From: a virus
Taxonomy: Duplodnaviria > Heunggongvirae > Uroviricota > Caudoviricetes
Virus record (IMG/VR): IMGVR_UViG_2648501165_000006
Direction: 5' to 3' (one strand)
DNA: 14,070 bases
Shown: piece by piece, positions 1-14,070 of the stretch
Position numbering within the stretch: the first letter of the stretch is position 1
Layout: each line of letters opens with the position of its first letter
Made by a program: the position numbers and the translations under genes
Notes under the pieces: model-generated
The model's input: only the letters and a program-made list of their open reading frames with translations
Told to the model about the DNA's origin: nothing
The model's database searches: none

Positions 1-47
1 CTCTCCAGGAAACCCGGGGCGGTTCAACCGATGCTCTTAAAGCTCAA

Positions 48-842
48 TTGGCATCAACGCAGAGTTCAAAAGAGTACAAAAATGATCGCAGCAAGGCGAT
101 GAATTCTGCTGTCAGCAATATGGCGCAGTGGTTCCGTTGGGATCCGTCTGCGGATGACCAGACGCCGGAAGCAGCTAGATTCCGTAATGACTATCAGACG
201 CTGTATGACATTAACTACCGCGTTGCTGGTGGTAACGCTGACGTAGCGAAGCAAATGACCAACCAGCAGATAGCCCGCACCTGGAGTATCAGCGAGGTTA
301 ACGGAGAAGCGCAGTTTATGAAATATGCACCGGAGGCGCTTTATCAATATGGGCCGTCAGGCTGGCAGGCGGCGCAGTGGAAAGCTGAAAAAGAACGGCT
401 GATGTACGGTGAGCGCAAAGAGATTATAACAACCAGCCCGACGTTGCTTGGGATCACGTCAGGTAATGCTCCTGTAGTTGAGACAAAAACCCCTGAGAGT
501 CGTATTAATGGAGAATTATTCATAACCCCTGACGTGTTAACACCCCGTAATGGTGATTACGCCATTATGGTAAGAACTAAGGATGAAAATGGCATCGATC
601 GGGTCCAGCCGTTTTATAACAAACATGGGCGTCCTATGCGTTGGGAACCATCACTAGAAGATTGGGAACCCTATAAGAAAATGCAGCAGGAACGGGAGCA
701 GTACGAGCAGGAAGAAATTATGCGTGGACAGGCTATACGAAACTTCAAAGACAAGCATCGCGCTCTGGATGAGCAGTATCAGCGCCTGCATAACGAACGT
801 ATGGACAAATTTAAAGATTACTTTTCGTGGGGATCTAAATAA
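48..842 (+). CDS. Phage virion or ejection-associated protein, function unknown; 5' end possibly beyond the window
   Basis: The reading frame is open back to position 3 with no in-frame stop, and the first in-frame start is TTG at 48. The stop TAA (840-842) overlaps the ATG of the next gene (842-844), indicating translational coupling. The C-terminus is charged and coiled-coil-like. Confidence 0.5.
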   Translation: MASTQSSKEYKNDRSKAMNSAVSNMAQWFRWDPSADDQTPEAARFRNDYQTLYDINYRVAGGNADVAKQMTNQQIARTWSISEVNGEAQFMKYAPEALYQYGPSGWQAAQWKAEKERLMYGERKEIITTSPTLLGITSGNAPVVETKTPESRINGELFITPDVLTPRNGDYAIMVRTKDENGIDRVQPFYNKHGRPMRWEPSLEDWEPYKKMQQEREQYEQEEIMRGQAIRNFKDKHRALDEQYQRLHNERMDKFKDYFSWGSK

Positions 843-3800
843 TGCCAGTTTATGCACAAGCTGAAGATCTTAATAACGGACTGATCCCGTCAGGTAACGT
901 TTTGCCGGAACAAACTGGGTTTGATGTTGCCCTTCCGGAAGGGGCTAATCCTGAGCCATTGCCACCTGAGCCTTCCGTATGGGGGGCTGCAATGCGACAG
1001 AACAATATTCTGTCTGGTTTTTTCCGCCCAGCCAGACAGTTTGAACCGGTCGAGGGTTATAACCCATATGCTGATAAAAATGAGTTGCACGGTTATGAAT
1101 ACTGGGGGGCGAAATTTGCAGATTCCCGATCGCCAGAGGAAACGGCGTGGATTAAGCAGCAGATAGATGATGAAAATGAAGACAGACGTTTATTGTCTGA
1201 TGCTGGCGTAGTTGGAACCCTTGCCAGTATTGCTGCGGGAATGGATCCGGTTACTGTTGCGTCAATGTTTATTCCCGGTGCTCAAGGAGGGGCACTGGCG
1301 CGTATTGGCTCACAGATTGCGATTGGTGCTGCCGGTACAGCATTAAGCGAGGTTGTACTGAATAATCAGCAAATAACACGCTCATGGGGTGAAAGTGCCG
1401 CTCACGTTGCAGCGGGTGCGATGATGAGCGGCGTGTTTGCCAGTGCTGGTGTTGCGCTTTCGCCATCCGTCCGGGCTGCAGCCACACGTGAGGTTGCTGA
1501 TGCTCTTGATAATATGAGCATTACATCAGCGACTGACAGGGCTGCCGCTTCGCTTTCCGATGGTGGTAGTGTTGGTGCTATGAAAATTGATACAGCGGCT
1601 CTGGATGATTTAACCCCTGTTTCCGGTGGGTGGGTTGGAAAGGCTGCATGGAAAGCAGGGAGCTATCTTACTCCTTTGACAAGGTTAATGGAGTCTCCGT
1701 CCAAGACGGTGCGAAAAACAGCGCTGGAGTTAGCCGAAAATAATTTCACCCTTAAAGGAAATGAAAGGGGGATTGAAACACCGGTAGCTGTAGAAACCCG
1801 TACACGTGGATGGCAGCGTGAAGAAGCTGCTGTTGTTGTCGGAAATAAACAGGCATACGCAAAGTATAAAGCTGATGGTGGTGACATGAGTTTTGATTCA
1901 TTTCGTCAGCAGGTTGGGAATGCTATGCGAAGCGGTGATGTGCATGCTAATCCTGTTGTTCAGGAAACGGCGCAGGCGATGCGAACTGTATTAAATCGGG
2001 TGAAAGTTGAAATGCAAAAGCTTGGTTTATTGCCGCCAGATGAAGAACTGAAAGCATTAGGCCAGGCAAGCTATTTCCCACGCATATATAAAGTTGGAAA
2101 AATAATCAGTGAACGCGATAAATTTCGACGTATTTTGGTTGACTGGTGGTCGAGAGGAAATAAAACACTGGATCCTGAGGATGCTGAAATTGCAGCGGAT
2201 ATCGTAATTAATAAAATTACTGGTGCTAAGGTTCCACAGGATTTTGTCAGCGTATTTTCTGTAAAAGCCGCAGGTAGTACGAAAGAAAGAACATTAAATG
2301 TTTCTGATAGTCTTATCAGGGATTATCTTGAAAGTGATGTGAATTACGTGCTGCAACGTCATATCCGTGAAGCGGCAGCAGAAATTGAGTTGACGAGAAC
2401 ATTTGGCAAACGAACTATGACTGAGCGTCTGCAATTAATTGAGGACGAATATGACAGTCTGTTACGGGAAGTGCCTGAAAAAATAAAGGCGAAATATGAC
2501 GAAAGTGTGGCAAATCTGAAAGCACGTTATGAGAGCAATGGTGAAGTTGTTCCTCAGGGTAAACTCGATTCATTAATGCGAAAGTACGAAAAGGAATTAC
2601 GGAAAGAACAGTCCAGACTTTCAAAATCAAGAGCAAATGATCTCAGAGACATAACAGCATTACGCGATCGTCTTGTTGGTACATATGGTATGCCTGATGA
2701 TCCGTCTTCGTTTTTTGTTCGTGCTGGCGCTTTTCTGCGGGATGTGAACTTCACGACCAAACTCGGTGGAATGACAGTATCAGCTATTCCAGATCTGGCC
2801 AGAGGGGTTATGGTTAATGGTTTCCGTAACACCATGAAAGGCTATGCTTCTCAGATATCCCAATCACCGGCATTTAAGGCCAGCAAAGAAGAGATGTTGA
2901 AGATGGGGATTGGATTGGAAGCTGTACTACATTCACGTTCTCGTGCAATTGGTGATCTTGTTGACAGTTCTTCCAGGACAACAGCAGTCGAAGCAGGAAT
3001 GGAGCGAATTACTGATGCCTTCGGCAAGCTGACACTCATGGATCGATTTAATGACATAAACAAATCCATGAACGGAATGCTCACGTCAGACGGTATTTTG
3101 TCTGGTGCGTTTTCTGCACGTCGCATGGCAAAACTCGGTATCAACGACAATATGGCTGCGCGTATTCGCAGTGAGTTCGAGAAACATGGTGAGGTAATTG
3201 ATGGATGGCACATTGGTAACTTTGATAAATGGGACGATCAGTACGTTGCCGGAGTATTCCAGTCAGCGGTTCTGAAAGACGTTAATAACACTATCATCAC
3301 CCCCGGTATTGGTGACACACCTTTATGGGCGAGTACTCCAATGGGGCGAACGATATTTCAGTTTAAATCATTCACAACGGCTTCATACAACCGTGCGCTA
3401 CTTGGTGGGTTACAGGAAGGAACTGCGCAATTTTATTATGGCACTGTATTTCAGATTGCTCTTGGCTCACTGGTCTATGCGCTAAAAGAAGCATCGAAAG
3501 GGAAAAATGTTGACTGGTCACCAGAGAAGCTGGTGCTTGAGGGTATAGATAGATCCGGTATTCTTGGGCCATTGATGGAATATAACAACATGGCTGAAAA
3601 GGCTACTGGTGGTGCTGTTGGGCTGGGGGCTTTATTTGGCACTGGCACACAGTCTAGGTATGCCAGTCGTGGATTCGTAGGATCTCTATTCGGACCGTCA
3701 TTTGGTCTTGCGGATAGCATCATTGATGTGACCGCAGGAGTGTTGAATGGTGATGCCGGTGATCGTATTGTGCATAATGTCCGAACCCTGATACCAGGCA

Positions 3801-3856
3801 ATAACCTGTTCTGGATTGCGCCACTAATAAACCAGGTGGATCCGGTGATGCGGTGA
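842..3856 (+). CDS. Large (1004 aa) phage internal virion / DNA-ejection (core) protein candidate
   Basis: Long ORF with a Gly/Ala-rich hydrophobic stretch (GAQGGALARIGSQIAIGAAGTALSEV...AAGAMMSGVFASAGVAL) and an extended charged coiled-coil region. It sits upstream of the immunity region and tailspike, as ejection proteins do in P22-like and epsilon15-like podoviruses. Function is inferred from size, composition and position only. Confidence 0.55.
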   Translation: MPVYAQAEDLNNGLIPSGNVLPEQTGFDVALPEGANPEPLPPEPSVWGAAMRQNNILSGFFRPARQFEPVEGYNPYADKNELHGYEYWGAKFADSRSPEETAWIKQQIDDENEDRRLLSDAGVVGTLASIAAGMDPVTVASMFIPGAQGGALARIGSQIAIGAAGTALSEVVLNNQQITRSWGESAAHVAAGAMMSGVFASAGVALSPSVRAAATREVADALDNMSITSATDRAAASLSDGGSVGAMKIDTAALDDLTPVSGGWVGKAAWKAGSYLTPLTRLMESPSKTVRKTALELAENNFTLKGNERGIETPVAVETRTRGWQREEAAVVVGNKQAYAKYKADGGDMSFDSFRQQVGNAMRSGDVHANPVVQETAQAMRTVLNRVKVEMQKLGLLPPDEELKALGQASYFPRIYKVGKIISERDKFRRILVDWWSRGNKTLDPEDAEIAADIVINKITGAKVPQDFVSVFSVKAAGSTKERTLNVSDSLIRDYLESDVNYVLQRHIREAAAEIELTRTFGKRTMTERLQLIEDEYDSLLREVPEKIKAKYDESVANLKARYESNGEVVPQGKLDSLMRKYEKELRKEQSRLSKSRANDLRDITALRDRLVGTYGMPDDPSSFFVRAGAFLRDVNFTTKLGGMTVSAIPDLARGVMVNGFRNTMKGYASQISQSPAFKASKEEMLKMGIGLEAVLHSRSRAIGDLVDSSSRTTAVEAGMERITDAFGKLTLMDRFNDINKSMNGMLTSDGILSGAFSARRMAKLGINDNMAARIRSEFEKHGEVIDGWHIGNFDKWDDQYVAGVFQSAVLKDVNNTIITPGIGDTPLWASTPMGRTIFQFKSFTTASYNRALLGGLQEGTAQFYYGTVFQIALGSLVYALKEASKGKNVDWSPEKLVLEGIDRSGILGPLMEYNNMAEKATGGAVGLGALFGTGTQSRYASRGFVGSLFGPSFGLADSIIDVTAGVLNGDAGDRIVHNVRTLIPGNNLFWIAPLINQVDPVMR

Positions 3857-3867
3857 GTTAAACGCCT

Positions 3868-4458
3868 TTAGCATGATTCAGGGGAAACCCCAATATTAAA
3901 TATGAGTGACTCTCCTGAATCAGCATAATAATGTAATATTATTGACTTACGTTGTTTTCTTGCTTCGTAGAATAAACGCTCTTGCGGCGATAATTTGTGA
4001 AAACTGCCGGATGCACAATATATGTTTTTTAACTTTTCGCTGGTTGCTTTTATTGTATCTTCTGAGATGTATTTTAGGTATTTATCCGTATAGATGTTGC
4101 TACTATAAGAAATTAATGTTTTGCTGTTGTTGTGATGTATTGTATTTTTATCGTTGAAGTCTGTATTTTTATTTACTGTCATTAGGTTTTTAATGATTAC
4201 ATGTAATGCAATAGTCTCCCCATCATCAATTCCATATTTGATGTCATAGTCAGTATATTTATTTGTTATACCGCTTCCTGATAGCGGCACTATGTACTCT
4301 GAGAAAAATGAGTTTGCCGCGTGACCATCAAGAGCAATAGCAGTTTTTTTGTGGTAAAAATAAAACAATATTGAGAGAGTCAAAATAATAGCGACGCCTA
4401 ATGCAACCTTTAATATAGATATGGTTTTCAAAATATCGCTCCTTGTTGTAACATACAT
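3868..4458 (-). CDS. Membrane-anchored hypothetical protein in an AT-rich moron (candidate superinfection-exclusion or defence effector)
   Basis: Visibly AT-rich ORF. It has one long N-terminal hydrophobic segment (ILKVALGVAIILTLSILFYFY) followed by a ~165-aa soluble domain with two Cys. The start is ambiguous: TTG at 4479 (ORF track), ATG at 4458, or TTG at 4431 preceded by AGGAG at 7-nt spacing. It lies immediately downstream of the RHH regulator gene on the same strand. Confidence 0.5.
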   Translation of the reverse strand: MYVTTRSDILKTISILKVALGVAIILTLSILFYFYHKKTAIALDGHAANSFFSEYIVPLSGSGITNKYTDYDIKYGIDDGETIALHVIIKNLMTVNKNTDFNDKNTIHHNNSKTLISYSSNIYTDKYLKYISEDTIKATSEKLKNIYCASGSFHKLSPQERLFYEARKQRKSIILHYYADSGESLIFNIGVSPESC

Positions 4459-4521
4459 CAGTAATGTGGCGTTTTTCAATTGTATTAAAGACGTGTAATA
4501 TGTACACGCCTTTTGTTCTTC

Positions 4522-4953
4522 CTATTCAGGTATTTCAATTCCAAAACCATCTGCATCCCATGAGTTTTCACAGATGATGTAACCTAGTTCATTGAGCTTA
4601 TTAAATGTTTTTTCAAAGATGATCTGGTAATCATTATCTGCAAGTGATTCCAGTTCAAGGTCATTAAGGTTTATATAAAAACTTGTATGTCCAAGTGTTA
4701 TTTTCTTATTGATTTCATTAAAAGTTCTTTTGAAAATAATATTTGATATTTCATGCCGTGCATTGTTTGCAATAATTTTTGCTTCATAAGCAGAAATTAC
4801 GTCATCTTCATGAATATCTTTCAGAAAGCTGGTGTCAAGACGTTGTACTATTTCAGCGTTCATTGAGCGCTTATTGGCTTTTGCAGAAATTTCTATTTTT
4901 TCTTTTACTTCAACGGGAAGTCTGATCCTTAGTTGTGGATCTTCTCTGCTCAT
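4522..4953 (-). CDS. Arc/Mnt-family ribbon-helix-helix transcriptional regulator with a ~90-aa C-terminal extension
   Basis: The N-terminus MSREDPQLRIRLPVEVKEKIEISAKANKRSMNAEIVQRL matches the Mnt/Arc RHH pattern (basic beta-strand, then helices, with the ...RSMN.E... motif). The likely start is ATG at 4953 with a GGTGA ribosome-binding site; the ORF-track start at 4983 is TTG. The gene is AT-rich. Confidence 0.6.
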   Translation of the reverse strand: MSREDPQLRIRLPVEVKEKIEISAKANKRSMNAEIVQRLDTSFLKDIHEDDVISAYEAKIIANNARHEISNIIFKRTFNEINKKITLGHTSFYINLNDLELESLADNDYQIIFEKTFNKLNELGYIICENSWDADGFGIEIPE

Positions 4954-4998
4954 GTTCTTCACCAAATATTGAGTTACTTGCAATGATTGAAGTATGCC

Positions 4999-5059
4999 TC
5001 ACCGTGTGCTTGACATCAATGACGCACGGTGTGACAATTGTTTTGCCCCACGGTGGGGC
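4999..5059. promoter_or_regulatory. Divergent immI-like control region: sigma70-like promoter (TTGACA 5010-5015, 17-nt spacer, GACAAT 5033-5038) overlapped by repeated CACCGTG / CACGGTG operator-like half-sites
   Basis: CACCGTG at 5000-5006 and its reverse complement CACGGTG at 5025-5031 flank the -35 element. A third copy sits inside the near-palindrome GCCCCACGGTGGGGC at 5045-5059, just upstream of the AAGGAG ribosome-binding site (5061-5066) of the Arc-like gene. Confidence 0.4.
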
Positions 5060-5073
5060 TAAGGAGATATGAA

Positions 5074-5241
5074 ATGCAAAAAGCAAAAGAGATGTGTCAA
5101 CGACGAGTTCGTTTTCCGGACGATGTGAAGTTAGCTATTGAAAGAAATGGCGAAAAAGAATGCCGAAAGTTCAATACAGAGATTATCTATCAGCTGAGGA
5201 AAGTGTATGGACTCACTGGTGAGAAGAATAGCGTGGCATAA
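5074..5241 (+). CDS. Arc-like small ribbon-helix-helix repressor (55 aa)
   Basis: ATG at 5074 is preceded by AAGGAG at 7-nt spacing. The product MQKAKEMCQRRVRFPDDVKLAIERNGEKECRKFNTEIIYQLRKVYG has the size and RHH pattern of phage P22 Arc. The ORF-track start at 5038 lacks a ribosome-binding site. Confidence 0.6.
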   Translation: MQKAKEMCQRRVRFPDDVKLAIERNGEKECRKFNTEIIYQLRKVYGLTGEKNSVA

Positions 5242-5247
5242 AACAGC

Positions 5248-5280
5248 GAAGCCCAACGGTGGCCAGACCGTCAGGGCTTC
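5248..5280 (-). terminator. Hairpin between the Arc-like and antirepressor genes, terminator-like on the minus strand (candidate sar-type antisense RNA terminator)
   Basis: 7-bp stem GAAGCCC / GGGCTTC with an internally structured loop. On the minus strand the hairpin is followed by a T-rich tract (TGTTTTAT); on the plus strand it is not. Confidence 0.35.
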
Positions 5281-5313
5281 AGTATCGTAAAACTACGTAT
5301 AGGAATTAACGAC

Positions 5314-6140
5314 ATGACGAGTATAGCAACAGCGCTATCTACTATCAACGTGCCATTCCACGGCGCAGAACTTTATGTTGTCAATCACAACGGAGAACCG
5401 TACACCCCAATGAAACCTATCGTTGAAGGCATGGGTATGGATTGGGCTTCACAGTTTACGAAAATGAAGCAGCGGTTTAAAACCTGCATTGTGAAAATCA
5501 CAATGCAGCTTCCTGGGGATGAACAGCGCCGTGAGATTATTTGTTTGGCACTTCGCAAACTTGCTGGCTGGTTGCAAACCATCAGCCCTAACAAAGTCCG
5601 CCCTGAAATCCGCGACAAGGTAATCCAGTATCAGGAAGAGTGTGACGATGTTCTCTACGAGTACTGGACTAAAGGCCATGTGGTTAACCCACGCAAAGCT
5701 AAAAAGGCGTTGCCGGGTAAAATAACCACTGAACAGCAGGAAGCCATTAAACAACTCGTCATGAGTCGCGGTCAGTCTCTGCCAAAAGAAAAACAGGCTA
5801 AGGCGATGATCACCATGTGGTCGTCACTGAAATCTCATTTTGGCTGTTCGTACAAAGAAATTGATGAAGATCAATTCGCCGAAGCGTTGTCTCTTGTTGC
5901 TCGGGTTCCGCTTGAAGGGGAGCATCTCCCTGCTGGATCTGCATCAGAGAATGATGAAGTGGCAGTCAAGATGTTAGATGCGCTTCGTGAGGCAATTAAA
6001 ACACAGACAAAATGTTATGGTTATCCGCTGAAGCCCGGCTACCGCAGTCTGATTCATTCGCCGTCTGGTGTTCTCGGCCTGACGGAGAACNNNNNNNNNN
6101 CCACGCGGAGTACATCAACGACAAGGCAGGGTTCTTCTGA
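5314..6140 (+). CDS. Antirepressor (Ant-like N-terminal domain plus KilA-C-like C-terminal domain), interrupted by an assembly gap
   Basis: The N-terminus MTSIATALSTINVPFHGAELYVVNHNGEPYTPMKPIVEGMGMDWASQF is antirepressor-like. After the N run, the frame ...HAEYINDKAGFF-stop (ending at 6138-6140) matches the C-terminus of the minus-strand antirepressor 7124..7810. The ORF-track extension to 6315 is a frame artefact of the N10 placeholder. Confidence 0.6.
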
Positions 6141-6164
6141 CAGAACGGCGGCACAGGGATGTGC
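6028..6164 (+). repeat. Inverted repeat copy A (antirepressor C-terminal module plus ~25 bp of 3' UTR), gapped
   Basis: 6028-6090 and 6101-6164 are near-identical to the reverse complement of 7101..7359, for example CTGAAGCCCGGCTACCGCAG...GGCCTGACGGAGAAC and CACGCGGAGTACATCAACGACAAGGC. Confidence 0.8.
6091..6100. other. Assembly gap (10 N placeholder) inside a repeated antirepressor C-terminal module
   Basis: A literal run of ten n characters. By comparison with the paralogous copy at 7101..7359, the true missing length is probably ~120-130 bp. Confidence 0.95.
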
Positions 6165-6190
6165 AAAACGGAACTATCGTGACATGTCAC

Positions 6191-6215
6191 AGGCCGCTTT
6201 CGCGGCCTTGTTTTT
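6191..6215 (+). terminator. Rho-independent terminator downstream of the antirepressor gene
   Basis: Stem AGGCCGC (6191-6197), loop TTTC, stem GCGGCCT (6202-6208), then TGTTTTT. Confidence 0.6.
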
Positions 6216-6255
6216 AACGAATGCCACCGCCGCCCGGGCGGGAATCCGCAGACAC

Positions 6256-6277
6256 AAAAAAGCCCGCAACGCGGGCT
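6256..6277 (-). terminator. Rho-independent terminator immediately after the 181-aa minus-strand gene
   Basis: On the minus strand: stem AGCCCGC, loop GTT, stem GCGGGCT, followed by T6 (the plus-strand A-run at 6256-6261). The hairpin overlaps the stop codon at 6277-6279. Confidence 0.6.
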
Positions 6278-6822
6278 TATTCCTTCCATTTATCAGAAAA
6301 AAGCTCTTCTTCTAAAGGCATTGGTTCTGTTTTTGTTTTCTCAAAGAATTGATAACTGATAGTGATTGCTTCCTCTTTAAACTCTTCTTGCTCAGTTATG
6401 TTGTGGGCATCTGCGTCAACAAAAAACATAACCAGCGCATCACGATTGTGATTTACCGAATAAACTAAAAAGCAATCACTTGTTGGTATGCATTTTACTT
6501 GCACAGACGCTATATTTTTCCATGCATCCCAAGATGATTTTTTACCAGTGTGTTTTTTATCACTATCTTCTGGAATATAGTCTTGGTTATCGACATGAGT
6601 ATGCCTGACATTTAGTTTAAGCATTTCTGTCGGACGAGCAAATGCAGCATCTTTACCAAGAGATGGATGGTATCCCGTTTTCCAATACTGGGTAAAGGCA
6701 TCAGATACTTTCTTCAGCTCAAGATCAGATGCACAAAGGGCCGAGAAATTTTGCGTATGCAATACTCGACCCTTATATCTGACAATTTGATTTTTATCAT
6801 TCTGCGACGCAGACGAACTCAT
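6277..6822 (-). CDS. Hypothetical 181-aa protein, candidate toxin or abortive-infection effector (possible YafO-like motifs)
   Basis: ATG at 6822 is preceded by AAGGA. The motifs ...EMLKLNVRHTHV... and ...CFLVYSVNHNRDALVMFFVDA... resemble, from memory, conserved blocks of YafO-family mRNA-interferase toxins; this is unverified. The gene is flanked by its own terminator and lies between convergent antirepressor genes. Confidence 0.5.
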   Translation of the reverse strand: MSSSASQNDKNQIVRYKGRVLHTQNFSALCASDLELKKVSDAFTQYWKTGYHPSLGKDAAFARPTEMLKLNVRHTHVDNQDYIPEDSDKKHTGKKSSWDAWKNIASVQVKCIPTSDCFLVYSVNHNRDALVMFFVDADAHNITEQEEFKEEAITISYQFFEKTKTEPMPLEEELFSDKWKE

Positions 6823-6976
6823 AATTTTCCTTATTGTTACGAGAATCAAAGAAAGCTCGGGATACGCGACTTGCGTGATCTTTTGTCATAGTAACTTTTA
6901 CGTACTCTACGCTTCCATTGAAAGAACGTCTTGCGGCAGCTTGCGCTCTACGCATCTGCAATTTTTCGTTTCGCAT
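6797..6976 (-). CDS. Small 59-aa ORF upstream of and overlapping the 181-aa gene (candidate antitoxin or regulator)
   Basis: ATG at 6976 is preceded by GAGG at ~7-nt spacing. The N-terminus is Arg-rich (MRNEKLQMRRAQAAARR...). It overlaps the downstream gene start by 26 nt in a different frame. It is absent from the ORF track, which appears to omit ORFs of this size (shortest listed is 60 aa). Confidence 0.35.
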   Translation of the reverse strand: MRNEKLQMRRAQAAARRSFNGSVEYVKVTMTKDHASRVSRAFFDSRNNKENYEFVCVAE

Positions 6977-7100
6977 GACATTACCTCATATCTCATAAGT
7001 TCATTACACGGATTAATAAAAATGAAACCAATCCGTTTACCCTTGAGGTAATAGTACGCTATTCACCCACAGTCTGCAATCTGTACAGAATTATTTAAAG

Positions 7101-7359
7101 GCACATCCCTGTGCCGCCGCCCGTCAGAAGAACCCAGCCTTGTCGTTGATGTACTCCGCGTGAGTCTGGATATCACGCAGGCATTTGCTCACACCGACGA
7201 TGTAGCAGAACATGGTGGTCAGCTCCGCCGCCGCGCCCGATACATCGTGCCCGTCGTCCTGTAACTGGTTAAGCAGATTCATCAGCAGTGAGTTCTCCGT
7301 CAGGCCGAGAACACCAGACGGAGAATGAATCAGGCTGCGGTAGCCGGGCTTCAGTGGGG
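7101..7359 (-). repeat. Inverted repeat copy B (C-terminal module of the Bro-N antirepressor plus 3' UTR)
   Basis: The reverse complement matches copy A with a few mismatches. The repeat ends at GCACATCCCTGTGCCGCC (7101-7118). Confidence 0.8.
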
Positions 7360-7810
7360 CACTGTAGGTTTTGTTCTCTATCTTCATTGCCTGCATCACT
7401 GCTGATGCTGTGGCGTTGGCTACCTGGTCGGCAACCATCTTTATGCGTTCTTCCTGCGGGAGCGAGTTTTTAATGTAACTTCCGGTGCGGCGGATCTGAG
7501 GAAGAACCTCACCTGTAACCCATTTACGAAAGCGGTAGGGGATAGTGCCTGGTGTCACCGCATCGCGGCAGCGGAGGATCAGTGTGTAGAGGCCTGACTC
7601 GTTGATAATATTGGTTTCGCCTTGACGGCCTAAGTTAAATTTAGCCCTTTCATCATCATCAAGAGATTTTATTGACATAGTGGGGTTTGTCAGTTGAAGA
7701 GCTTTAATAACGTCTTTGGCAACAAACCAAGGATTTCCATCAATAACAATGGCTCGAATGGTTGCTTCTGATTCAAAATGAAAAACAGATGGGGTTACGT
7801 TAGCAGTCAT
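7124..7810 (-). CDS. Antirepressor with Bro-N-type N-terminal domain and KilA-C-like C-terminal domain
   Basis: From ATG at 7810 (ribosome-binding site AAGGTG) the N-terminus reads MTANVTPSVFHFESEATIRAIVIDGNPWFVAKDVIKALQL, the Bro-N signature. The C-terminal ~85 aa are near-identical to the gapped antirepressor at 5314..6140. The ORF-track extension to 7963 (MCKAHLFYGG...) is judged non-coding. Confidence 0.65.
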   Translation of the reverse strand: MTANVTPSVFHFESEATIRAIVIDGNPWFVAKDVIKALQLTNPTMSIKSLDDDERAKFNLGRQGETNIINESGLYTLILRCRDAVTPGTIPYRFRKWVTGEVLPQIRRTGSYIKNSLPQEERIKMVADQVANATASAVMQAMKIENKTYSAPLKPGYRSLIHSPSGVLGLTENSLLMNLLNQLQDDGHDVSGAAAELTTMFCYIVGVSKCLRDIQTHAEYINDKAGFF

Positions 7811-7963
7811 AGTGATCACCTTTGTAGTTAGGTTAATCACCACTACCGACGCCAATCGGTTGGTGGTGAACTGTGCAGGGTTGGCGTAACCGGCTACAAA
7901 GGACCCGGCGCACCTTTCGGTGCCCCCACACAGCCCACCATAGAATAGGTGCGCTTTACACAT

Positions 7964-7983
7964 AAAAAAAACCGCTTATGCGG
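7964..7983 (-). terminator. Weak terminator-like element (short GC stem followed by T8 on the minus strand)
   Basis: Plus strand reads AAAAAAAA then CCGC-TTAT-GCGG. On the minus strand the 4-bp GC stem is followed by eight T. The stem is short, so the call is weak. Confidence 0.25.
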
Positions 7984-8123
7984 CATATGTGCCTCTGTAG
8001 TAACTCGGGACGCCAATCCCGGCACTGGATTTTGCCAGTGCCCGATTACTATGGCACAAGAGGAGTGCGATGTAAATTTACCTCAAAGGTAAATATAAGC
8101 ACTCCACTTGGTAATTGCAAACC

Positions 8124-8381
8124 TTATCTGGTTTGCTTTCGTAATTGTTCGGCACAATAGTCGAGATGTGTTTGCAGATCCTGCATAGACATCTGTGAGC
8201 TGGTGACGTAGTTAATCAGTGCAGTCAGTTCGGCAAGTGGGCCATCGACATTAAATCCATCCTTATCGAGATCCCGGAGTAATTTCATCAAGTGCGATCC
8301 CTCCACCAGTGATCTGACGCCTCCCGGCGTGTGAATCCTTTCGGTAAATCCCTCTTCCAGTGGATAGTGATACTGCTGCAT
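8124..8381 (-). CDS. Stand-alone KilA-C-like (antirepressor C-terminal) domain protein, ~85 aa
   Basis: ATG at 8381 is preceded by GGAG. The sequence ...HTPGGVRSLVEGSHLMKLLRDLDKDGFNVDGPLAELTALINYVTSSQMSMQDLQTHLDY aligns by eye with the C-terminal modules of both antirepressors (...HSPSGVLGLTENSLLMNLLNQLQDDGHDVSGAAAELTTMFCYIVGVSKCLRDIQTHAEY). Confidence 0.55.
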   Translation of the reverse strand: MQQYHYPLEEGFTERIHTPGGVRSLVEGSHLMKLLRDLDKDGFNVDGPLAELTALINYVTSSQMSMQDLQTHLDYCAEQLRKQTR

Positions 8382-8576
8382 CTTATCTTCTCCATGCAAT
8401 AACTGTATAAATATACAGTAGCAAATAATTTGTTTGCTATCCAGCACGTTTTGCGAATCACCTGAAAGGTAATATCTGTTCGTATTTATGGGTTATCTAT
8501 CCATATATGGTTTTTAAGGTAATAGAATAACCGGATATGCGGCGCAACGGGTGCTGCGACTATCTGGAGATTTAAC

Positions 8577-10571
8577 ATGACGGTCTCAACCGAAGTTGAC
8601 CACAACGAATATACAGGTAACGGTGTTACAACTACGTTCCCTTATACCTTTAGGATTTTCCAGAAATCTGATCTGGTGGTGCAGGTGATTGACCTTGACG
8701 AGAATATCACTGTGCTGGCTCTTGATACTGATTACGCAGTCACTGGTGCGGGAGGCTATAGAGGCGGTAATATAATACTGTCGAAGGCATTGGCCAACGG
8801 TTATCAGATCTCTATATCACGAGAGCTCCCGGTTACTCAGGAAACAGATCTGCGTAATCAGGGTAAATTCTTTGCAGAGGTGCATGAGGATGCGTTTGAT
8901 AAGCTAACGATGCTGATTCAACAATGTCGTAGCTTGTTTCGTCTTGCACTTTGCAAGCCATCAAGTATTGCAAACTGGTACGACGCTTTAAATAACAGGA
9001 TTAGAAATCTTAAAGATCCAGAAAGCCCTCAGGATGCAGTAACTTTAAGTTATCTTGAAGGGTATATAGAAGGTGGTGATAGTACTTTGCGTCCAGATAT
9101 TACAAGAACTGGAGCTGTAGGGAATAATATACAGCAAGCCATAAACTTATCTATAGCCGGTCAAACTGTAATTACGATGAAAGATGATGAAATTGTATCT
9201 TCATTGTTAAATGAATATGGTGTTGAAATTGAGCAACGCAGGGGGCGTGTATTTAATACAGAAGGTGTTCAACTAACAACGTATTCTGACCCTCGTTCCC
9301 GTTTTGTAACTGGTGACCAATATCTTAATTATGTTATTAGCAAGATGATAAAAGCAGATGGCGTGGATAAATCACAGAAAACATATATTTTGTGGTCTGG
9401 TGACTCCACGATTGTTGGTGTTAACTCTGAATTATGGCCACCAGCAACTATTGCTGATTTTTATGCAAAGAGGTATGGAATTATTGATGTAAAAAATACA
9501 TCGTTAGGTCATTCAGGTAAAACTCTATACGAATGGGGTAATTGGTATATTGATCAGGAATGGTCTGTTTTTTCTGCTGCTGATTTGATTGTTTTACGAT
9601 GGGGAATTAACGATCCATATTATGGTTATACATTGGATCAAGTAAAAGACGCATTAGATAGAGGCCTTTCCAAGTTACGAAATAACAAATCAGTTTCCCA
9701 GCAATCAATTATTATCATGTCCCCAAACTCAACATCAGACACACCAAACGGACGTGATGAAAAATGGTATGAACAGTTAACAGCCGTACTTAGAGCCAAA
9801 GCAAAACAATATAAGTGTATGTTTTTTGATACTTACGGTATGTGGCAGGATTCGCGAGGATCTGCTGGTAACTGGCTTGATGACCCTTATGGCGATGGCA
9901 GGGGAATACACCCAAACTCAACATTTAGCGCACAGATACATAAATTATTATTTGAATATATTTATGGACCGTGTGCTGTTATAAATGGGAGTAGCAACCT
10001 TTTTTCTAACAATGGTTCTTCCATACAATTCATCAATAGCTCATATCCGCCAAATACTTTTCACATGGGGACTTCATGGTGGAGAACAAACCCTGATGAT
10101 GCTTCTTGGCCTCTTGATGGTGTTATTCAGGTTGATAGATTTGTTGACGGAATAGTAGTACAAAAAAATTATGGTTATTCTTCAGATAATGCTCGCGTTT
10201 GCTTAATGAGGATTGGAAGGATTAGTGAGAATACATGGAGTACATGGCGAGGTAATCAGTATGATATGAGTGGCATATTGCAAAATGGTTGGTCTGTAGG
10301 TGAGGCAAGAAGTGGAACATATCAGAAATCAGCCGAGGGCGTTGTTACTTTATCTGCTGTTTTAACAGGTGGAAATACATCTGTTGGCACGGTTATTATG
10401 GTATTGCCAGAAGGGTTTAGACCAAAGAATGATATTTCTTATATTCCATCAGGTACTGATTCATCGGTTGCCCTCATTAATATACTTTCAAACGGTAAAG
10501 TTACAATTCAGAGCTATCCGTCAGGAACTGTTCTTGTAATTAATACGACATTCCCTTCATTAGTTAATTAG
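8577..10571 (+). CDS. Tailspike / tail fibre protein with a conserved N-terminal particle-binding domain, a central SGNH/GDSL esterase module and a C-terminal beta-rich domain
   Basis: ATG at 8577 with a GGAG ribosome-binding site. The N-terminal ~120 aa (MTVSTEVDHNEYTGNGVTTTFPYTF...DLRNQGKFFAEVHEDAFDKLTMLIQQ) fit the podovirus tail-fibre adaptor pattern. SGNH blocks are present: GDS at codons 275-277 (nt 9399-9407), GIND (LRWGINDP), and DGRGIHP with the His at nt 9909-9911. The 3' two-thirds is visibly more AT-rich than the 5' end. Confidence 0.75.
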   Translation: MTVSTEVDHNEYTGNGVTTTFPYTFRIFQKSDLVVQVIDLDENITVLALDTDYAVTGAGGYRGGNIILSKALANGYQISISRELPVTQETDLRNQGKFFAEVHEDAFDKLTMLIQQCRSLFRLALCKPSSIANWYDALNNRIRNLKDPESPQDAVTLSYLEGYIEGGDSTLRPDITRTGAVGNNIQQAINLSIAGQTVITMKDDEIVSSLLNEYGVEIEQRRGRVFNTEGVQLTTYSDPRSRFVTGDQYLNYVISKMIKADGVDKSQKTYILWSGDSTIVGVNSELWPPATIADFYAKRYGIIDVKNTSLGHSGKTLYEWGNWYIDQEWSVFSAADLIVLRWGINDPYYGYTLDQVKDALDRGLSKLRNNKSVSQQSIIIMSPNSTSDTPNGRDEKWYEQLTAVLRAKAKQYKCMFFDTYGMWQDSRGSAGNWLDDPYGDGRGIHPNSTFSAQIHKLLFEYIYGPCAVINGSSNLFSNNGSSIQFINSSYPPNTFHMGTSWWRTNPDDASWPLDGVIQVDRFVDGIVVQKNYGYSSDNARVCLMRIGRISENTWSTWRGNQYDMSGILQNGWSVGEARSGTYQKSAEGVVTLSAVLTGGNTSVGTVIMVLPEGFRPKNDISYIPSGTDSSVALINILSNGKVTIQSYPSGTVLVINTTFPSLVN

Positions 10572-10578
10572 TTGTTTT

Positions 10579-10605
10579 TAGATTGCGACTAAAAATCGCA
10601 ATCTA
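10579..10605. repeat. Perfect 10-bp inverted repeat with 7-nt loop (TAGATTGCGA-CTAAAAA-TCGCAATCTA) immediately after the tailspike stop
   Basis: Read directly from the sequence. It is flanked by a T-run upstream and an A-run downstream, which is not the geometry of a plus-strand intrinsic terminator. Confidence 0.6.
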
Positions 10606-10722
10606 AAAAACACAAATGATGATTTTGTTGTTTACTTATAACATAATAATTCATATATGGTTTGGTTTTGATGGTGTTCTACCAGAAACTGGAGATTTGA
10701 TGAATGTTAAATGGTGGTTGAT

Positions 10723-11127
10723 ATGTCATTTCAAATAACTAATGATCATGTAAATCAGTATCTTACTGTTGGTTCTCTTGCTGCGGTTATTGGTGGGACT
10801 CCACCTGAAGTTGCTTTGGGCTCACTTGCCGGAGCTGTGATTTTTGTTACCTCTGCTATCGAGTATCCAATCCGTCGTCGTGTTCTTCTGTCAGTGCTCA
10901 GCTTTATTTGCGGCCTTCTCTTTTACAAACCAGCAGCATCAATTCTTATTGGCATAGCCAGCCTGATCCCTACCATCACACAGGACTCTTTTGAGAAAGG
11001 GATTGTTTTCTCTGCTGGCGCATTCGTGTCAGCAATTGTCGCTGTGCGTATTGGTATCTGGCTCTATCACCGTTCCGATAATCCACGCGAATTAATGCCG
11101 GGGAGAAAAGACGATGGTAACGCATGA
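10723..11127 (+). CDS. Holin-like membrane protein (about four predicted transmembrane segments)
   Basis: Hydrophobic segments (LTVGSLAAVIGG..., LAGAVIFVTSAI, VLLSVLSFICGLLFY, ILIGIASLIPTI, IVFSAGAFVSAIVAVRIGIWLY). It is the first gene of the lysis cassette. The start is either ATG at 10723 or at 10711. Confidence 0.5.
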   Translation: MSFQITNDHVNQYLTVGSLAAVIGGTPPEVALGSLAGAVIFVTSAIEYPIRRRVLLSVLSFICGLLFYKPAASILIGIASLIPTITQDSFEKGIVFSAGAFVSAIVAVRIGIWLYHRSDNPRELMPGRKDDGNA

Positions 11128-11422
11128 GCTTTTTTTACTTATCACCAATGCGGTTATTTGTACTGGCATAGCAATTCGCGTTGTCACTTTCCAGCGTAAC
11201 GGATCTCAACATCGAAGATGGGGTGGGTGGATTGCTTATTTCCTGATTGTTGCTGCTGCGAGTATTCCAGTTCGTGTCGTTTATGCAATCTGGTTACGCA
11301 CGCCAATGGCTGTGGATTTATCTGAGGTCATTATCAACGCTGTCATGCTTGCTGCGGTTCTTAAAACTCGCGGTAACGTCGTTCAGATTTTCAAAATAAC
11401 GAGGTCTAAATATGGAGATTAA
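11114..11422 (+). CDS. Second small membrane protein of the lysis cassette (holin or antiholin candidate)
   Basis: ATG at 11114 is preceded by GGGAGA. It overlaps the end of the upstream gene by 14 nt and the start of the endolysin gene by 11 nt. It has about three hydrophobic segments and a basic C-terminus. Confidence 0.5.
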
Positions 11423-12041
11423 ACAATTCCAGCGAGCTGCTGGTATTAGCGAGGCGCTGGCCGCTCGCTGGTTCTCGCATATAACTTCTGCGATGAAAGA
11501 GTTTGGTATCAGCAAACCAGAAGATCAGGCAATGTTTATTGCTCAGGTCGGGCATGAGTCTGGAGGCTTCACCCGGTTGCAGGAAAATTTCAACTACAGC
11601 GTAACCGGATTGGCTAACTTCGTTCAGGCTGGGCGTCTCACTCAGGGGCAGGCTAATGCACTTGGTCGCCGTGCTGGTGAACCACCATTGCCACTCGAGC
11701 GCCAGCGCGCGATCGCAAATCTGGTGTACAGCAAACGCATGGGGAACAATGCCCCTGGTGATGGCTGGAATTACCGTGGGCGCGGGCTTATCCAGATTAC
11801 CGGTTTGAATAACTATCGTGACTGTGGAAACGGTCTGAAAGTTGACCTGCTGGAGAATCCTGAACTGTTGGCGCAGGACGAATACGCGGCTCGTAGCGCG
11901 GCGTGGTTCTTCTCCAGCAAAGGTTGCATGAAGTATACCGGCGATATTGCACGTGTAACTCTGATTATCAATGGTGGCAGGAATGGCATCGACGACCGGC
12001 GCGCGCGGTACGTCACTGCCAGTAAGGTGCTGGCTGTATGA
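11412..12041 (+). CDS. Endolysin, glycoside hydrolase family 19 (chitinase-like lysozyme) type
   Basis: Motifs [12 protein letters not shown] and [15 protein letters not shown] are typical of GH19-type phage endolysins. From memory it closely resembles endolysins of epsilon15-like Salmonella phages such as SPN1S; this is unverified. GAGG ribosome-binding site, and the stop overlaps the Rz start (ATGA). Confidence 0.8.
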
Positions 12042-12520
12042 TCTGGGTATTCGTAAAAGCATACTGGAAACAGATGCTTATCGTGTTGATGCTTGCTGCT
12101 CTGTTCATCGTCGGAGTGGTTGCTTGGAATATACACGGCAGCCGCCAGTACGATGCCGGGTATGCGCAGGCGGAAGAAGACCGCAAAGACGAAGAAGACA
12201 AAGTTCGTCAGTACTACGAACAGGAGAAAGTGACCAATGAACGTGAAGCTCAGCAGAGGATCGACCAGGCGCGCAATGATGCTCTTGATGCTGCCGCTCG
12301 CGCTGGCCGGTTGCAGCAACAACTCTTTGCCATCCGTGAGCAGCTCAGGCAGTATAACGCCATTGTCGGCGCTGGGACGTCAGCCGCAGACACCGGAGTT
12401 TTGCTTGCCGACGTGCTCAGCAAATCTCTCGAGAGAAACAGACAACTGGCAGAGTATGCTGACCGGGCAGCCGAAGCCGGAAGAGTCTGCGAAAAACAGT
12501 ATGACACCCTGACCAGATAG
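12038..12520 (+). CDS. Rz: Rz-like inner-membrane spanin (i-spanin)
   Basis: N-terminal transmembrane segment ([18 protein letters not shown]) followed by a charged coiled-coil periplasmic domain. It lies directly after the endolysin gene and contains an embedded +1-frame lipoprotein gene. Confidence 0.75.
12237..12512 (+). CDS. Rz1: Rz1-like outer-membrane lipoprotein spanin (o-spanin), entirely embedded in Rz in the +1 frame
   Basis: AGGAG ribosome-binding site 9 nt upstream of ATG at 12237. The signal peptide has a basic n-region, a hydrophobic core and the lipobox LAGC. The mature part is Pro/Ser-rich, and the gene is nested in Rz as in lambdoid phages. Confidence 0.65.
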   Translation: MNVKLSRGSTRRAMMLLMLPLALAGCSNNSLPSVSSSGSITPLSALGRQPQTPEFCLPTCSANLSRETDNWQSMLTGQPKPEESAKNSMTP

Positions 12521-12630
12521 CATGGCATTTTTCATGGTACTGATTTCCTGTGACGGTATATAAAACGGTACGAGGAAAATTTAGTTTTGGAAAAATGTTA
12601 TCACTCAATTGGTTATGGTATCCGTAAATA

Positions 12631-12645
12631 ATTGAGTGGGAATGA
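12631..12645 (+). other. Putative attR core / remnant of the guaA 3' end (ATT GAG TGG GAA TGA = I-E-W-E-stop)
   Basis: This short reading frame opens only 2 codons upstream at TAA, so upstream sequence is not guaA-like. It ends with IEWE-stop, which I recall as the C-terminus of GMP synthase. Convergent host genes and a terminator follow. Flanking 9-bp inverted repeat TCACTCAATT (12601-12610) / AATTGAGTG (12630-12638). Confidence 0.4.
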
Positions 12646-12675
12646 TTTTAATCCCTGCACTATGAATGAACAAAA

Positions 12676-12702
12676 CCCTCTGTTACTACAGAGGGTTTTT
12701 TA
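12676..12702 (+). terminator. Strong rho-independent terminator (likely the native convergent terminator between guaA and the yfgI-like gene)
   Basis: 8-bp stem CCCTCTGT (12676-12683), loop TACT, stem ACAGAGGG (12688-12695), then TTTTTTA. An A-run precedes it, so it may act in both directions. Confidence 0.8.
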
Positions 12703-12739
12703 TCTTCAAGAATCATAGGCTTGAAGTTACTAACATCGA

Positions 12740-13279
12740 TTAATTAAACCAGCTGTCCGATTTGTTCTCTTCTGCTTTGCCCACGCTTTTCATCAGATCG
12801 CGACCGCCTTCAGTCATATTTCTGTTGGCGTCAGCTTCAGATTGCACCACATCGGTTTGCGCAGCTTTGTGCTTCAGTTCCTGATCGATAAATTCGTTTT
12901 CTCGCTTAACGCGGGCTTCTTCTTTCGCCAGCGCCAGTTTTTGTTTCTGAATCTCTAAGCTGCGTAGCTCATCTTCATAACTTTGATCGCGTTTTTTGTC
13001 CGCAGAGGCTTCGGCGTCCAGTTTATCCTGACGAGCTTTCTTATTTGCTGCTGCCGTTGCCGCTCTTTTGTTAGCGGCGGCCTGGGCATTTGCGCGACGT
13101 TGCTTCTCTTGCTGGATTTCCCTGTTGCGCTCCGCGACCCATTCGTCATGCTGCCTTTGCTCTTCATTTTTACCTTGCTGTTCAGCTTCTGCTACAGCAG
13201 AGAGTTGATCCTGCAATGATGAGGCGATAGCCGGATAGCTTAAGGAGGCCAAGATGGCGCAAAGAAAAACTTTCTTCAT
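12740..13279 (-). CDS. yfgI: Host periplasmic Lys/Ala/Gln-rich protein with signal peptide (YfgI-like)
   Basis: Strong AGGAGG ribosome-binding site before ATG at 13279. Signal peptide MKKVFLCAILASLSYPAIA followed by a charged, low-complexity coiled-coil region. Size (179 aa) and pairing with an upstream glycine-zipper lipoprotein match my recollection of E. coli yfgH-yfgI next to guaA. The symbol is from memory and unverified. Confidence 0.5.
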   Translation of the reverse strand: MKKVFLCAILASLSYPAIASSLQDQLSAVAEAEQQGKNEEQRQHDEWVAERNREIQQEKQRRANAQAAANKRAATAAANKKARQDKLDAEASADKKRDQSYEDELRSLEIQKQKLALAKEEARVKRENEFIDQELKHKAAQTDVVQSEADANRNMTEGGRDLMKSVGKAEENKSDSWFN

Positions 13280-13294
13280 GACTCCTCCTGATTA

Positions 13295-13810
13295 TTAGCT
13301 CTTTTCAGGACATTTAGTATTTGGCTGAATACGCGTTTCGTTATACGTTGTGGTAATAACAACGGCTAAACCTGTCGTAAACTGGCACTCTTTACCCACC
13401 TGGGTAGAGGTATACACTTTGGTGCCTTCCTTATATGTTAAAGAAACACCTTCCACTAAGGTTTTATCATTCACCATAGAACCCGCTGCCGCGCCTACAG
13501 CTCCGCCGCCAACTGCCCCTGCCGTCGTTCCGGAATTGCTGCCAGAACCGACGTTGTGGCCGATAACACCGCCAGCGACTGCGCCAATAAGCGCGCCGAA
13601 GGCTTGTGCGTTCCGTTTATTTTGGGAGTTGTCTACGGCAACTTTTGCGGGAAGAATGGAAATAATATTAACGGTTTTAGTTTCTTGTTTGGTATTCAGT
13701 TGATCGGTTTGATAAACATCGGCGGCATGATCGTCAGCATTTGACTGGCATCCTGCCAGAGTGAATGACGCTAACATTGCCACAGGCAGAAGACATTTTT
13801 TAAATTTCAT
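13295..13810 (-). CDS. yfgH: Host outer-membrane lipoprotein with a glycine-zipper region (YfgH-like)
   Basis: Lipoprotein signal peptide MKFKKCLLPVAMLASFTLAGC (lipobox LAGC) and a glycine-zipper stretch (GALIGAVAGGVIGHNVGSG...GAVGGGAVGAAAG). ATG at 13810 with an AGGA ribosome-binding site; the ORF-track start at 13813 is GTG. The symbol is from memory and unverified. Confidence 0.5.
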   Translation of the reverse strand: MKFKKCLLPVAMLASFTLAGCQSNADDHAADVYQTDQLNTKQETKTVNIISILPAKVAVDNSQNKRNAQAFGALIGAVAGGVIGHNVGSGSNSGTTAGAVGGGAVGAAAGSMVNDKTLVEGVSLTYKEGTKVYTSTQVGKECQFTTGLAVVITTTYNETRIQPNTKCPEKS

Positions 13811-14070
13811 CACTATTCCTTGTTATACACATTACGAAAAATAAGACATTTAAGATCATCAAAAGAGGAAAGTAAATGTATTGCGTATAAAGGGATAGAT
13901 TAAATTTATTAAAATTCACGCAGGGAATAATTTATAAAAATATATCATTACAACATATATATTAATTTTATATTTATTTCGCAGCCAAACAGGATAAACA
14001 TCAGTCAGGACAAAGACGTAAAATTTAAGATGAAAGAATATCTGCCGCTTTGATAATTCCAAAGAGCAAA

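Follow-up and report, generated by a model that had tools for sequence, protein, structure and literature searches.

A junction between phage and host DNA at the guaA 3' end of Escherichia coli with the features of an epsilon15/phiV10-group attR site

The 14,070-nucleotide stretch of DNA analyzed here (the window) contains at 12521-12739 what is almost certainly an attR site (P-O-B'), formed where a temperate podovirus from the epsilon15/phiV10 group (Uetakevirus, with TL-2011b the closest record) has integrated into the E. coli chromosome at the guaA 3' end. The junction is already known, being the att site of a known phage group at a published integration site. A phage-derived arm is joined through a short core to a host arm that carries the native guaA terminator and is followed by two host genes, with the features arranged as follows.

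12521-12630, no strand assigned: P arm, phage-derived, aligning without gaps to the left attP arms of phiV10 and epsilon15, with no alignment to K-12
12631-12647, plus strand: att core ATTGAGTGGGAATGATT, 17 bp, the overlap of phage and host, including the guaA remnant I-E-W-E-stop (12631-12645)
12648-12739, no strand assigned: host B' arm, the native guaA-yfgI intergenic region, aligning to K-12 3' of guaA
12672-12699, no strand assigned: native bidirectional intrinsic terminator from a terminator scan, a strong hairpin with a T-run, identical in K-12
12740-13279, minus strand: yfgI (DUF5384), host, from the Pfam DUF5384 match (7.5e-62) and the RefSeq annotation of matching genomes
13295-13813, minus strand: yfgH, a glycine-zipper lipoprotein, host, from the Pfam glycine zipper 2TM match and RefSeq annotation

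An earlier reading made from the sequence only had recognized the codons ATT GAG TGG GAA TGA as the C terminus of GMP synthase in a frame opening just two codons upstream at TAA, with phage DNA to the left, and each of these points is borne out. The five codons occupy 12631-12645 with the in-frame TAA at 12625-12627, and they match the 3' end of K-12 guaA, whose product terminates in ...KPPATIEWE*. The BLASTN comparison with the K-12 guaA-yfgI region that had been proposed as a check, carried out with the whole window, returns a single alignment covering 12631-14070 at 98.75% identity. In the pairwise alignment to the guaA 3' end, the base-for-base identity starts at 12631, the first base of ATTGAG, and the sequence leftward of it is unrelated. 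Approached from the phage side, the matches to free phages stop at 12647 (phiV10, ZX5, HEMP4, and others) or at 12648 (epsilon15). The core therefore extends past the 15 bp of coding sequence to a full length of 17 bp. A six-way alignment of the window, the UTAK-1 attL and attR, the epsilon15 and phiV10 attP, and the K-12 attB shows the window to be composed of phage P arm, core, and host B' arm, with ATTGAGTGGGAATGATT identical in all of the other five sites.

The core is identical throughout to the attP/attB core that was defined by experiment for phage vB_EcoP_ZX5, attgagtgggaatgatt. In that phage the sequence lies 190 bp upstream of int and in the host it corresponds to the guaA 3' end, as verified at attB, attL, and attR by PCR with Sanger sequencing (PMC9782041). 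The same paper gives phiV10 and epsilon15 this core and site as well (PMC9782041), and a TL-2011b-type phage of EHEC O103:H25 has been described as inserted at guaA (PMC3293862). The assignment to an epsilon15-like phage integrating at guaA thus agrees with both the Uetakevirus matches and the published site. The vB_EcoP_ZX5, phiV10, and epsilon15 sites have in common with the window the core, a collinear P arm, the arm-type motif, the Rz/Rz1-attP-int layout, and the host target, the difference being that the window holds the integrated form (attR) and the three phages were compared as attP. Strand exchange must fall within the shared 17 bp, in which inspection for a 6-8 bp overlap with inverted core-type sites revealed no clear dyad. 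The 17-mer occurs once in the 14-kb window, with no second copy of the core, as is expected because the window covers only part of a prophage of ~40 kb.

The other end of the prophage is seen in relatives of the window, which itself holds neither attL, int, nor guaA. The closest of 5,426 complete E. coli genomes, none of which is identical to the window, is UTAK-1 (NZ_CP157165) with 99.0% identity overall, 99.8% over 6102-14070 and 97.9% over 27-6090. From guaB and guaA (1,578 nt), the UTAK-1 map continues through a tyrosine integrase gene and an entire podovirus-like prophage to the lysis genes, and then reaches yfgI and yfgH. The direct repeat that had been predicted for the far prophage end is present in this genome as two copies of the 17-mer 39,637 bp apart (7503-7519 and 47140-47156 of locus L005). 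The attL copy ends an intact guaA beside the tyrosine integrase, and the second copy forms an attR junction like that of the window. UTAK-1 GuaA has 525 amino acids, ends in PPATIEWE*, and differs from the K-12 protein at one residue. Integration leaves guaA undisrupted, because its final four codons and stop lie within the core and are regained at attL. The wording "into guaA" used at first is accordingly misleading, the target being the extreme 3' end of a gene that stays intact. The UTAK-1 prophage between guaA and yfgI is complete, with int, attL, and attR.

In the proposed mechanism, a phage tyrosine integrase with an arm-binding N-terminal domain would recombine the attP core ATTGAGTGGGAATGATT with the identical guaA end in a lambda-style integrative reaction, attP lying between the Rz/Rz1 lysis genes and int. 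This would rebuild guaA intact at attL, beside int, and would leave the core of the window as an orphan duplicate at the far end, joined to the native guaA terminator, yfgI, and yfgH. The UTAK-1 integrase has the matching domains (Arm-DNA-bind_3, Phage_int_M, and Phage_integrase), and we infer that the integrase acts on these att sites in the source strain. To judge from sequence, the system appears to share with lambda-type recombination the P-O-P' arrangement, an int gene beside P', an arm-binding integrase domain, arm-type repeats in both arms, and an IHF-like motif. It differs from lambda in the integrase subfamily, which the phiV10 record gives as P4-like, and in having its target inside the end of a protein-coding gene.

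The P arm contains the following candidate protein-binding elements.

12550-12559, plus strand: predicted arm-type integrase binding motif GTGACGGTAT, identical to the "integrase" sites annotated in the epsilon15 record
12563-12572: a second, related arm motif AAAACGGTAC
12594-12618, no strand assigned: conserved P-arm block TGTTATCA[C/G]TCAATTGGTTATG, holding the IHF-like motif and the left arm of an inverted repeat

The match to GTGACGGTAT at 12550-12559 is the only one with one mismatch or fewer in the 14-kb window, and the motif is present on both attP arms in phiV10 and epsilon15. Conservation was read from an alignment of 75 distinct P arms taken from core-carrying IMG/VR contigs. Positions 12535-12572 are 90-100% conserved in this set, positions 12594-12618 are 80-99% conserved with the exception of 12604 (C or G), and CGTAAATA, immediately 5' of the core, is 99% conserved; the stretches between these blocks vary. 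The IHF consensus is WATCAANNNNTTR, and the IHF-like sequence TATCACTCAATTG (12599-12611) fits it at 12 of 13 positions with the mismatch at the variable position. The epsilon15 record annotates IHF sites at the position equivalent to the 12594-12618 block. The conserved blocks probably bind Int and IHF.

A 9-bp inverted repeat had been described as flanking the core. The repeat is real and perfectly complementary, with CACTCAATT at 12602-12610 and AATTGAGTG at 12630-12638. The right arm shares 8 bases with the core, whose left end it forms, so that the repeat does not flank the core; the left arm belongs to the conserved IHF-like block. Considered as a pair of core-type integrase sites, the repeat was rejected, the arms being 19 bp apart, which is too far, and one of them lying outside the region of identity. 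This reading is also countered by polymorphism at position 12604, where the left arm has its third base and about half of the relatives carry C or G, and by epsilon15, which keeps 6 of the 9 repeat positions. As a possibility, the sequence TATCA[C/G]TCAATTG, pairing with the left end of the core, might be an extra Int or IHF site that sets directionality.

The phage part of the window belongs to the epsilon15/phiV10 group (Uetakevirus), the best phage record being TL-2011b with 97% identity over 85% of the window. Across the lysis module and P arm, identity is ~89% to phiV10 and ~82% to epsilon15. The genes leading up to attR are listed below.

8577-10571, plus strand: tail fiber/tailspike, with Pfam Lipase_GDSL_2 (7e-15) and PHROG tail protein families (1e-111, residues 1-162)
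10711-12041, plus strand: lysis cassette, from Pfam and PHROG holin/endolysin families
10711-11127 and 11114-11422, plus strand: two holin-family genes, Pfam Phage_holin_8 and Phage_holin_3_7
11412-12041, plus strand: GH19 endolysin, Pfam Glyco_hydro_19
12038-12520, plus strand: Rz-like spanin (DUF2514), with DUF2514 (8e-45), phrog_312 (3e-59), and phrog_11621 (1e-40)
12237-12512, plus strand: Rz1-like gene embedded in Rz, matching the epsilon15 and phiV10 annotation

The order of tail fiber, holins, GH19 endolysin, Rz/Rz1, and attP is shared with the epsilon15 and phiV10 records, and Rz/Rz1 are the final phage genes before attP. The GH19 endolysin and the tail-then-lysis order cited in the sequence-only reading are thus found both in the Pfam/PHROG matches and in the two reference phages. 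Domain searches also return anti-repressors and an SLT-domain internal virion protein. The tail fiber is composed of a conserved epsilon15-type N-terminal region of ~160 residues followed by a GDSL/SGNH esterase domain. Relative to vB_EcoP_ZX5, phiV10, and epsilon15, the window is mosaic in the receptor-binding part of the tail fiber and in the anti-repressor/moron region. The segment at ~8918-10735 is shared with neither TL-2011b nor phiV10 and is identical in UTAK-1; a receptor-binding module has been exchanged here, and it may be an O-antigen deacetylase. An ORF at 6277-6849 on the minus strand, whose UTAK-1 counterpart is annotated as a type II toxin-antitoxin YafO-family toxin, lies in the mosaic region between anti-repressor genes at 5314-6315 and 7124-7963. 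TL-2011b (JQ011317), a prophage of EHEC O103:H25, holds the same attR and host flank in its deposited record, and differs from the window in the C-terminal part of the tail fiber (~8918-10735) and in some moron genes.

The opposite end of the window carries a further boundary.

1-26, no strand assigned: outer end of an IS3-family insertion sequence, interrupting the prophage gene for the SLT-domain internal virion protein

Every phage or prophage match begins at window position 27, which places the junction at 26/27. The sequence of 1-30 matches 35,101 places in 4,115 E. coli genomes with a median of 5 per genome, and in O26 strain RM10386 the match lies 17 nt past an IS3-family transposase with a programmed frameshift. 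TL-2011b has no insertion sequence at the position of window 26/27, and the SLT-domain gene of the UTAK-1 prophage, unlike that of the window, has no IS3-family insertion. With the end of such an element inside a virion gene, this prophage copy may be defective and may not make particles.

The interrupted virion gene speaks for the alternative that the junction is a fossil, in which Uetakevirus integration at guaA did take place and the prophage is now defective with an attR that no longer works. So does a truncated prophage occupying the same site in NZ_OZ261667, its capsid gene annotated as incomplete. We nevertheless regard a dead attR as unlikely in the window, though it deserves some weight. 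An insertion in a virion gene stops particle formation and need not stop excision, and there is no damage in the P arm, the core, or the arm-type motif, all of which match active phages. The int end lies outside the window, and nothing indicates that int has been lost.

The same few guaA bases are used by the genomic island GIsul2, which integrates at 5'-GAGTGGGA-3' at the guaA 3' end with guaA remaining functional (PMC9376610). As this target lies within the core of the window, the junction could in principle have been left by a different guaA-targeting element such as a GIsul2-type island and not by a phage. We consider this extremely improbable, since to its left the phage lysis genes run on without a break into DNA collinear with the phiV10 and epsilon15 P arms up to the core, with island DNA absent between the lysis genes and the core. 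GIsul2 further differs from the element in the window in being an island, with a shorter core and different arms. A chance resemblance of I-E-W-E-stop to the guaA end within phage DNA, which five codons taken alone might suggest, can be dismissed, as the host identity sets in at the motif's first base and runs unbroken over 1,440 bp, and the 17-mer is a proven att core. Even a tolerance of 3 mismatches gives an expectation of 0.05 chance occurrences in the window.

On the host side of the attR junction, the strong native terminator and the yfgI and yfgH genes convergent to guaA, both anticipated in the sequence-only reading, are found as described. The K-12 order is yfgH, yfgI, and then the convergent guaA, with 92 bp between the guaA and yfgI stops. 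The hairpin at 12672-12699 folds with -20.1 kcal/mol on the plus strand and -21.1 kcal/mol on the minus strand (z = -5.8 and -5.5), and because a hairpin with a U-run folds equally well on both strands the terminator is taken to be bidirectional. It sits between the former guaA end and yfgI and, in the lysogen, is located downstream of the phage lysis genes, where it presumably now ends the late (lysis) transcript of the prophage. Directly after the core, at 12648-12654, the host flank reads TTAATCC compared with TGACC in K-12, and TTAATCC is present in all lysogens examined and in many empty sites. A recombination scar was considered for this variant and rejected, as a synthetic empty site carrying it matches many non-lysogens at 100%. 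Since it is also found in unoccupied sites, TTAATCC is a host lineage polymorphism.

The phage P' arm, on the attL side and outside the window, has a hairpin terminator of its own, which agrees with the native one of guaA at 25 of 27 positions, flanks included (L005:7564-7600 on the attL side of UTAK-1 and L007:2282-2314 in phiV10, to be compared with window 12672-12699). It has the same 8-bp stem as the native terminator, CCCTCTGT/ACAGAGGG, positioned 44 nt past the core compared with 23-25 nt in the host. UTAK-1 shows a compensatory variant of the P' stem, CCCCCTGT/ACAGGGGG, and epsilon15 a one-sided variant. A tentative explanation, somewhat doubtful at present, is that the guaA 3' region was at one time acquired by the phage, which retains it as a portable gene end with terminator. 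If true, integration would supply guaA with a phage-borne version of its terminator and leave the native one to the lysis operon.

The P-core-B' junction is found in 550 of the 5,426 complete E. coli genomes (~10%), and the uninterrupted guaA-terminator site in 4,548. Among the matches listed for GTDB species representatives, the 17-mer occurs across many phyla and is preceded by the GuaA C terminus ..KPP[AG]TIEWE* at 107 of 120 loci. The target is thus a highly conserved piece of an essential-pathway gene, in keeping with the usual logic of att site choice. The other 13 of the 120 listed loci (L024, L027, L048, L054, L060, L066, L068, L080, L081, L083, L099, L103, and L128) have no GuaA C terminus before the 17-mer. 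Several of them end in ...ATA before the core like the phage P arm, L027 and L103 are alike on both flanks, and L024 carries, 36 nt upstream of the 17-mer, a degenerate second copy. Such loci may mark where further elements that target guaA have att junctions in distant taxa, or they may have arisen by chance, and because ~70 chance matches are expected in 596 Gb they are unreadable one by one. The core-carrying contigs of IMG/VR are mostly P-core-B' junctions, so that many predicted viral contigs of this phage group carry host flank past attR. The E. coli-type B' arm is present in 68 of the 120 listed (L129-L248), and B' arms of other types, such as TCGCGTCTGGCAACAGCC..., point to integration of this phage group at guaA in further enterobacterial hosts.

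The significance of the assignment is small outside annotation, for which it sets the prophage boundary at 12647/12648 and identifies the element as a TL-2011b/phiV10-like Uetakevirus prophage, a type common in bovine and EHEC-associated E. coli. The guaA-site junction is usable as a PCR or in-silico marker of occupancy, and a prophage at the guaA 3' end does not inactivate guaA.
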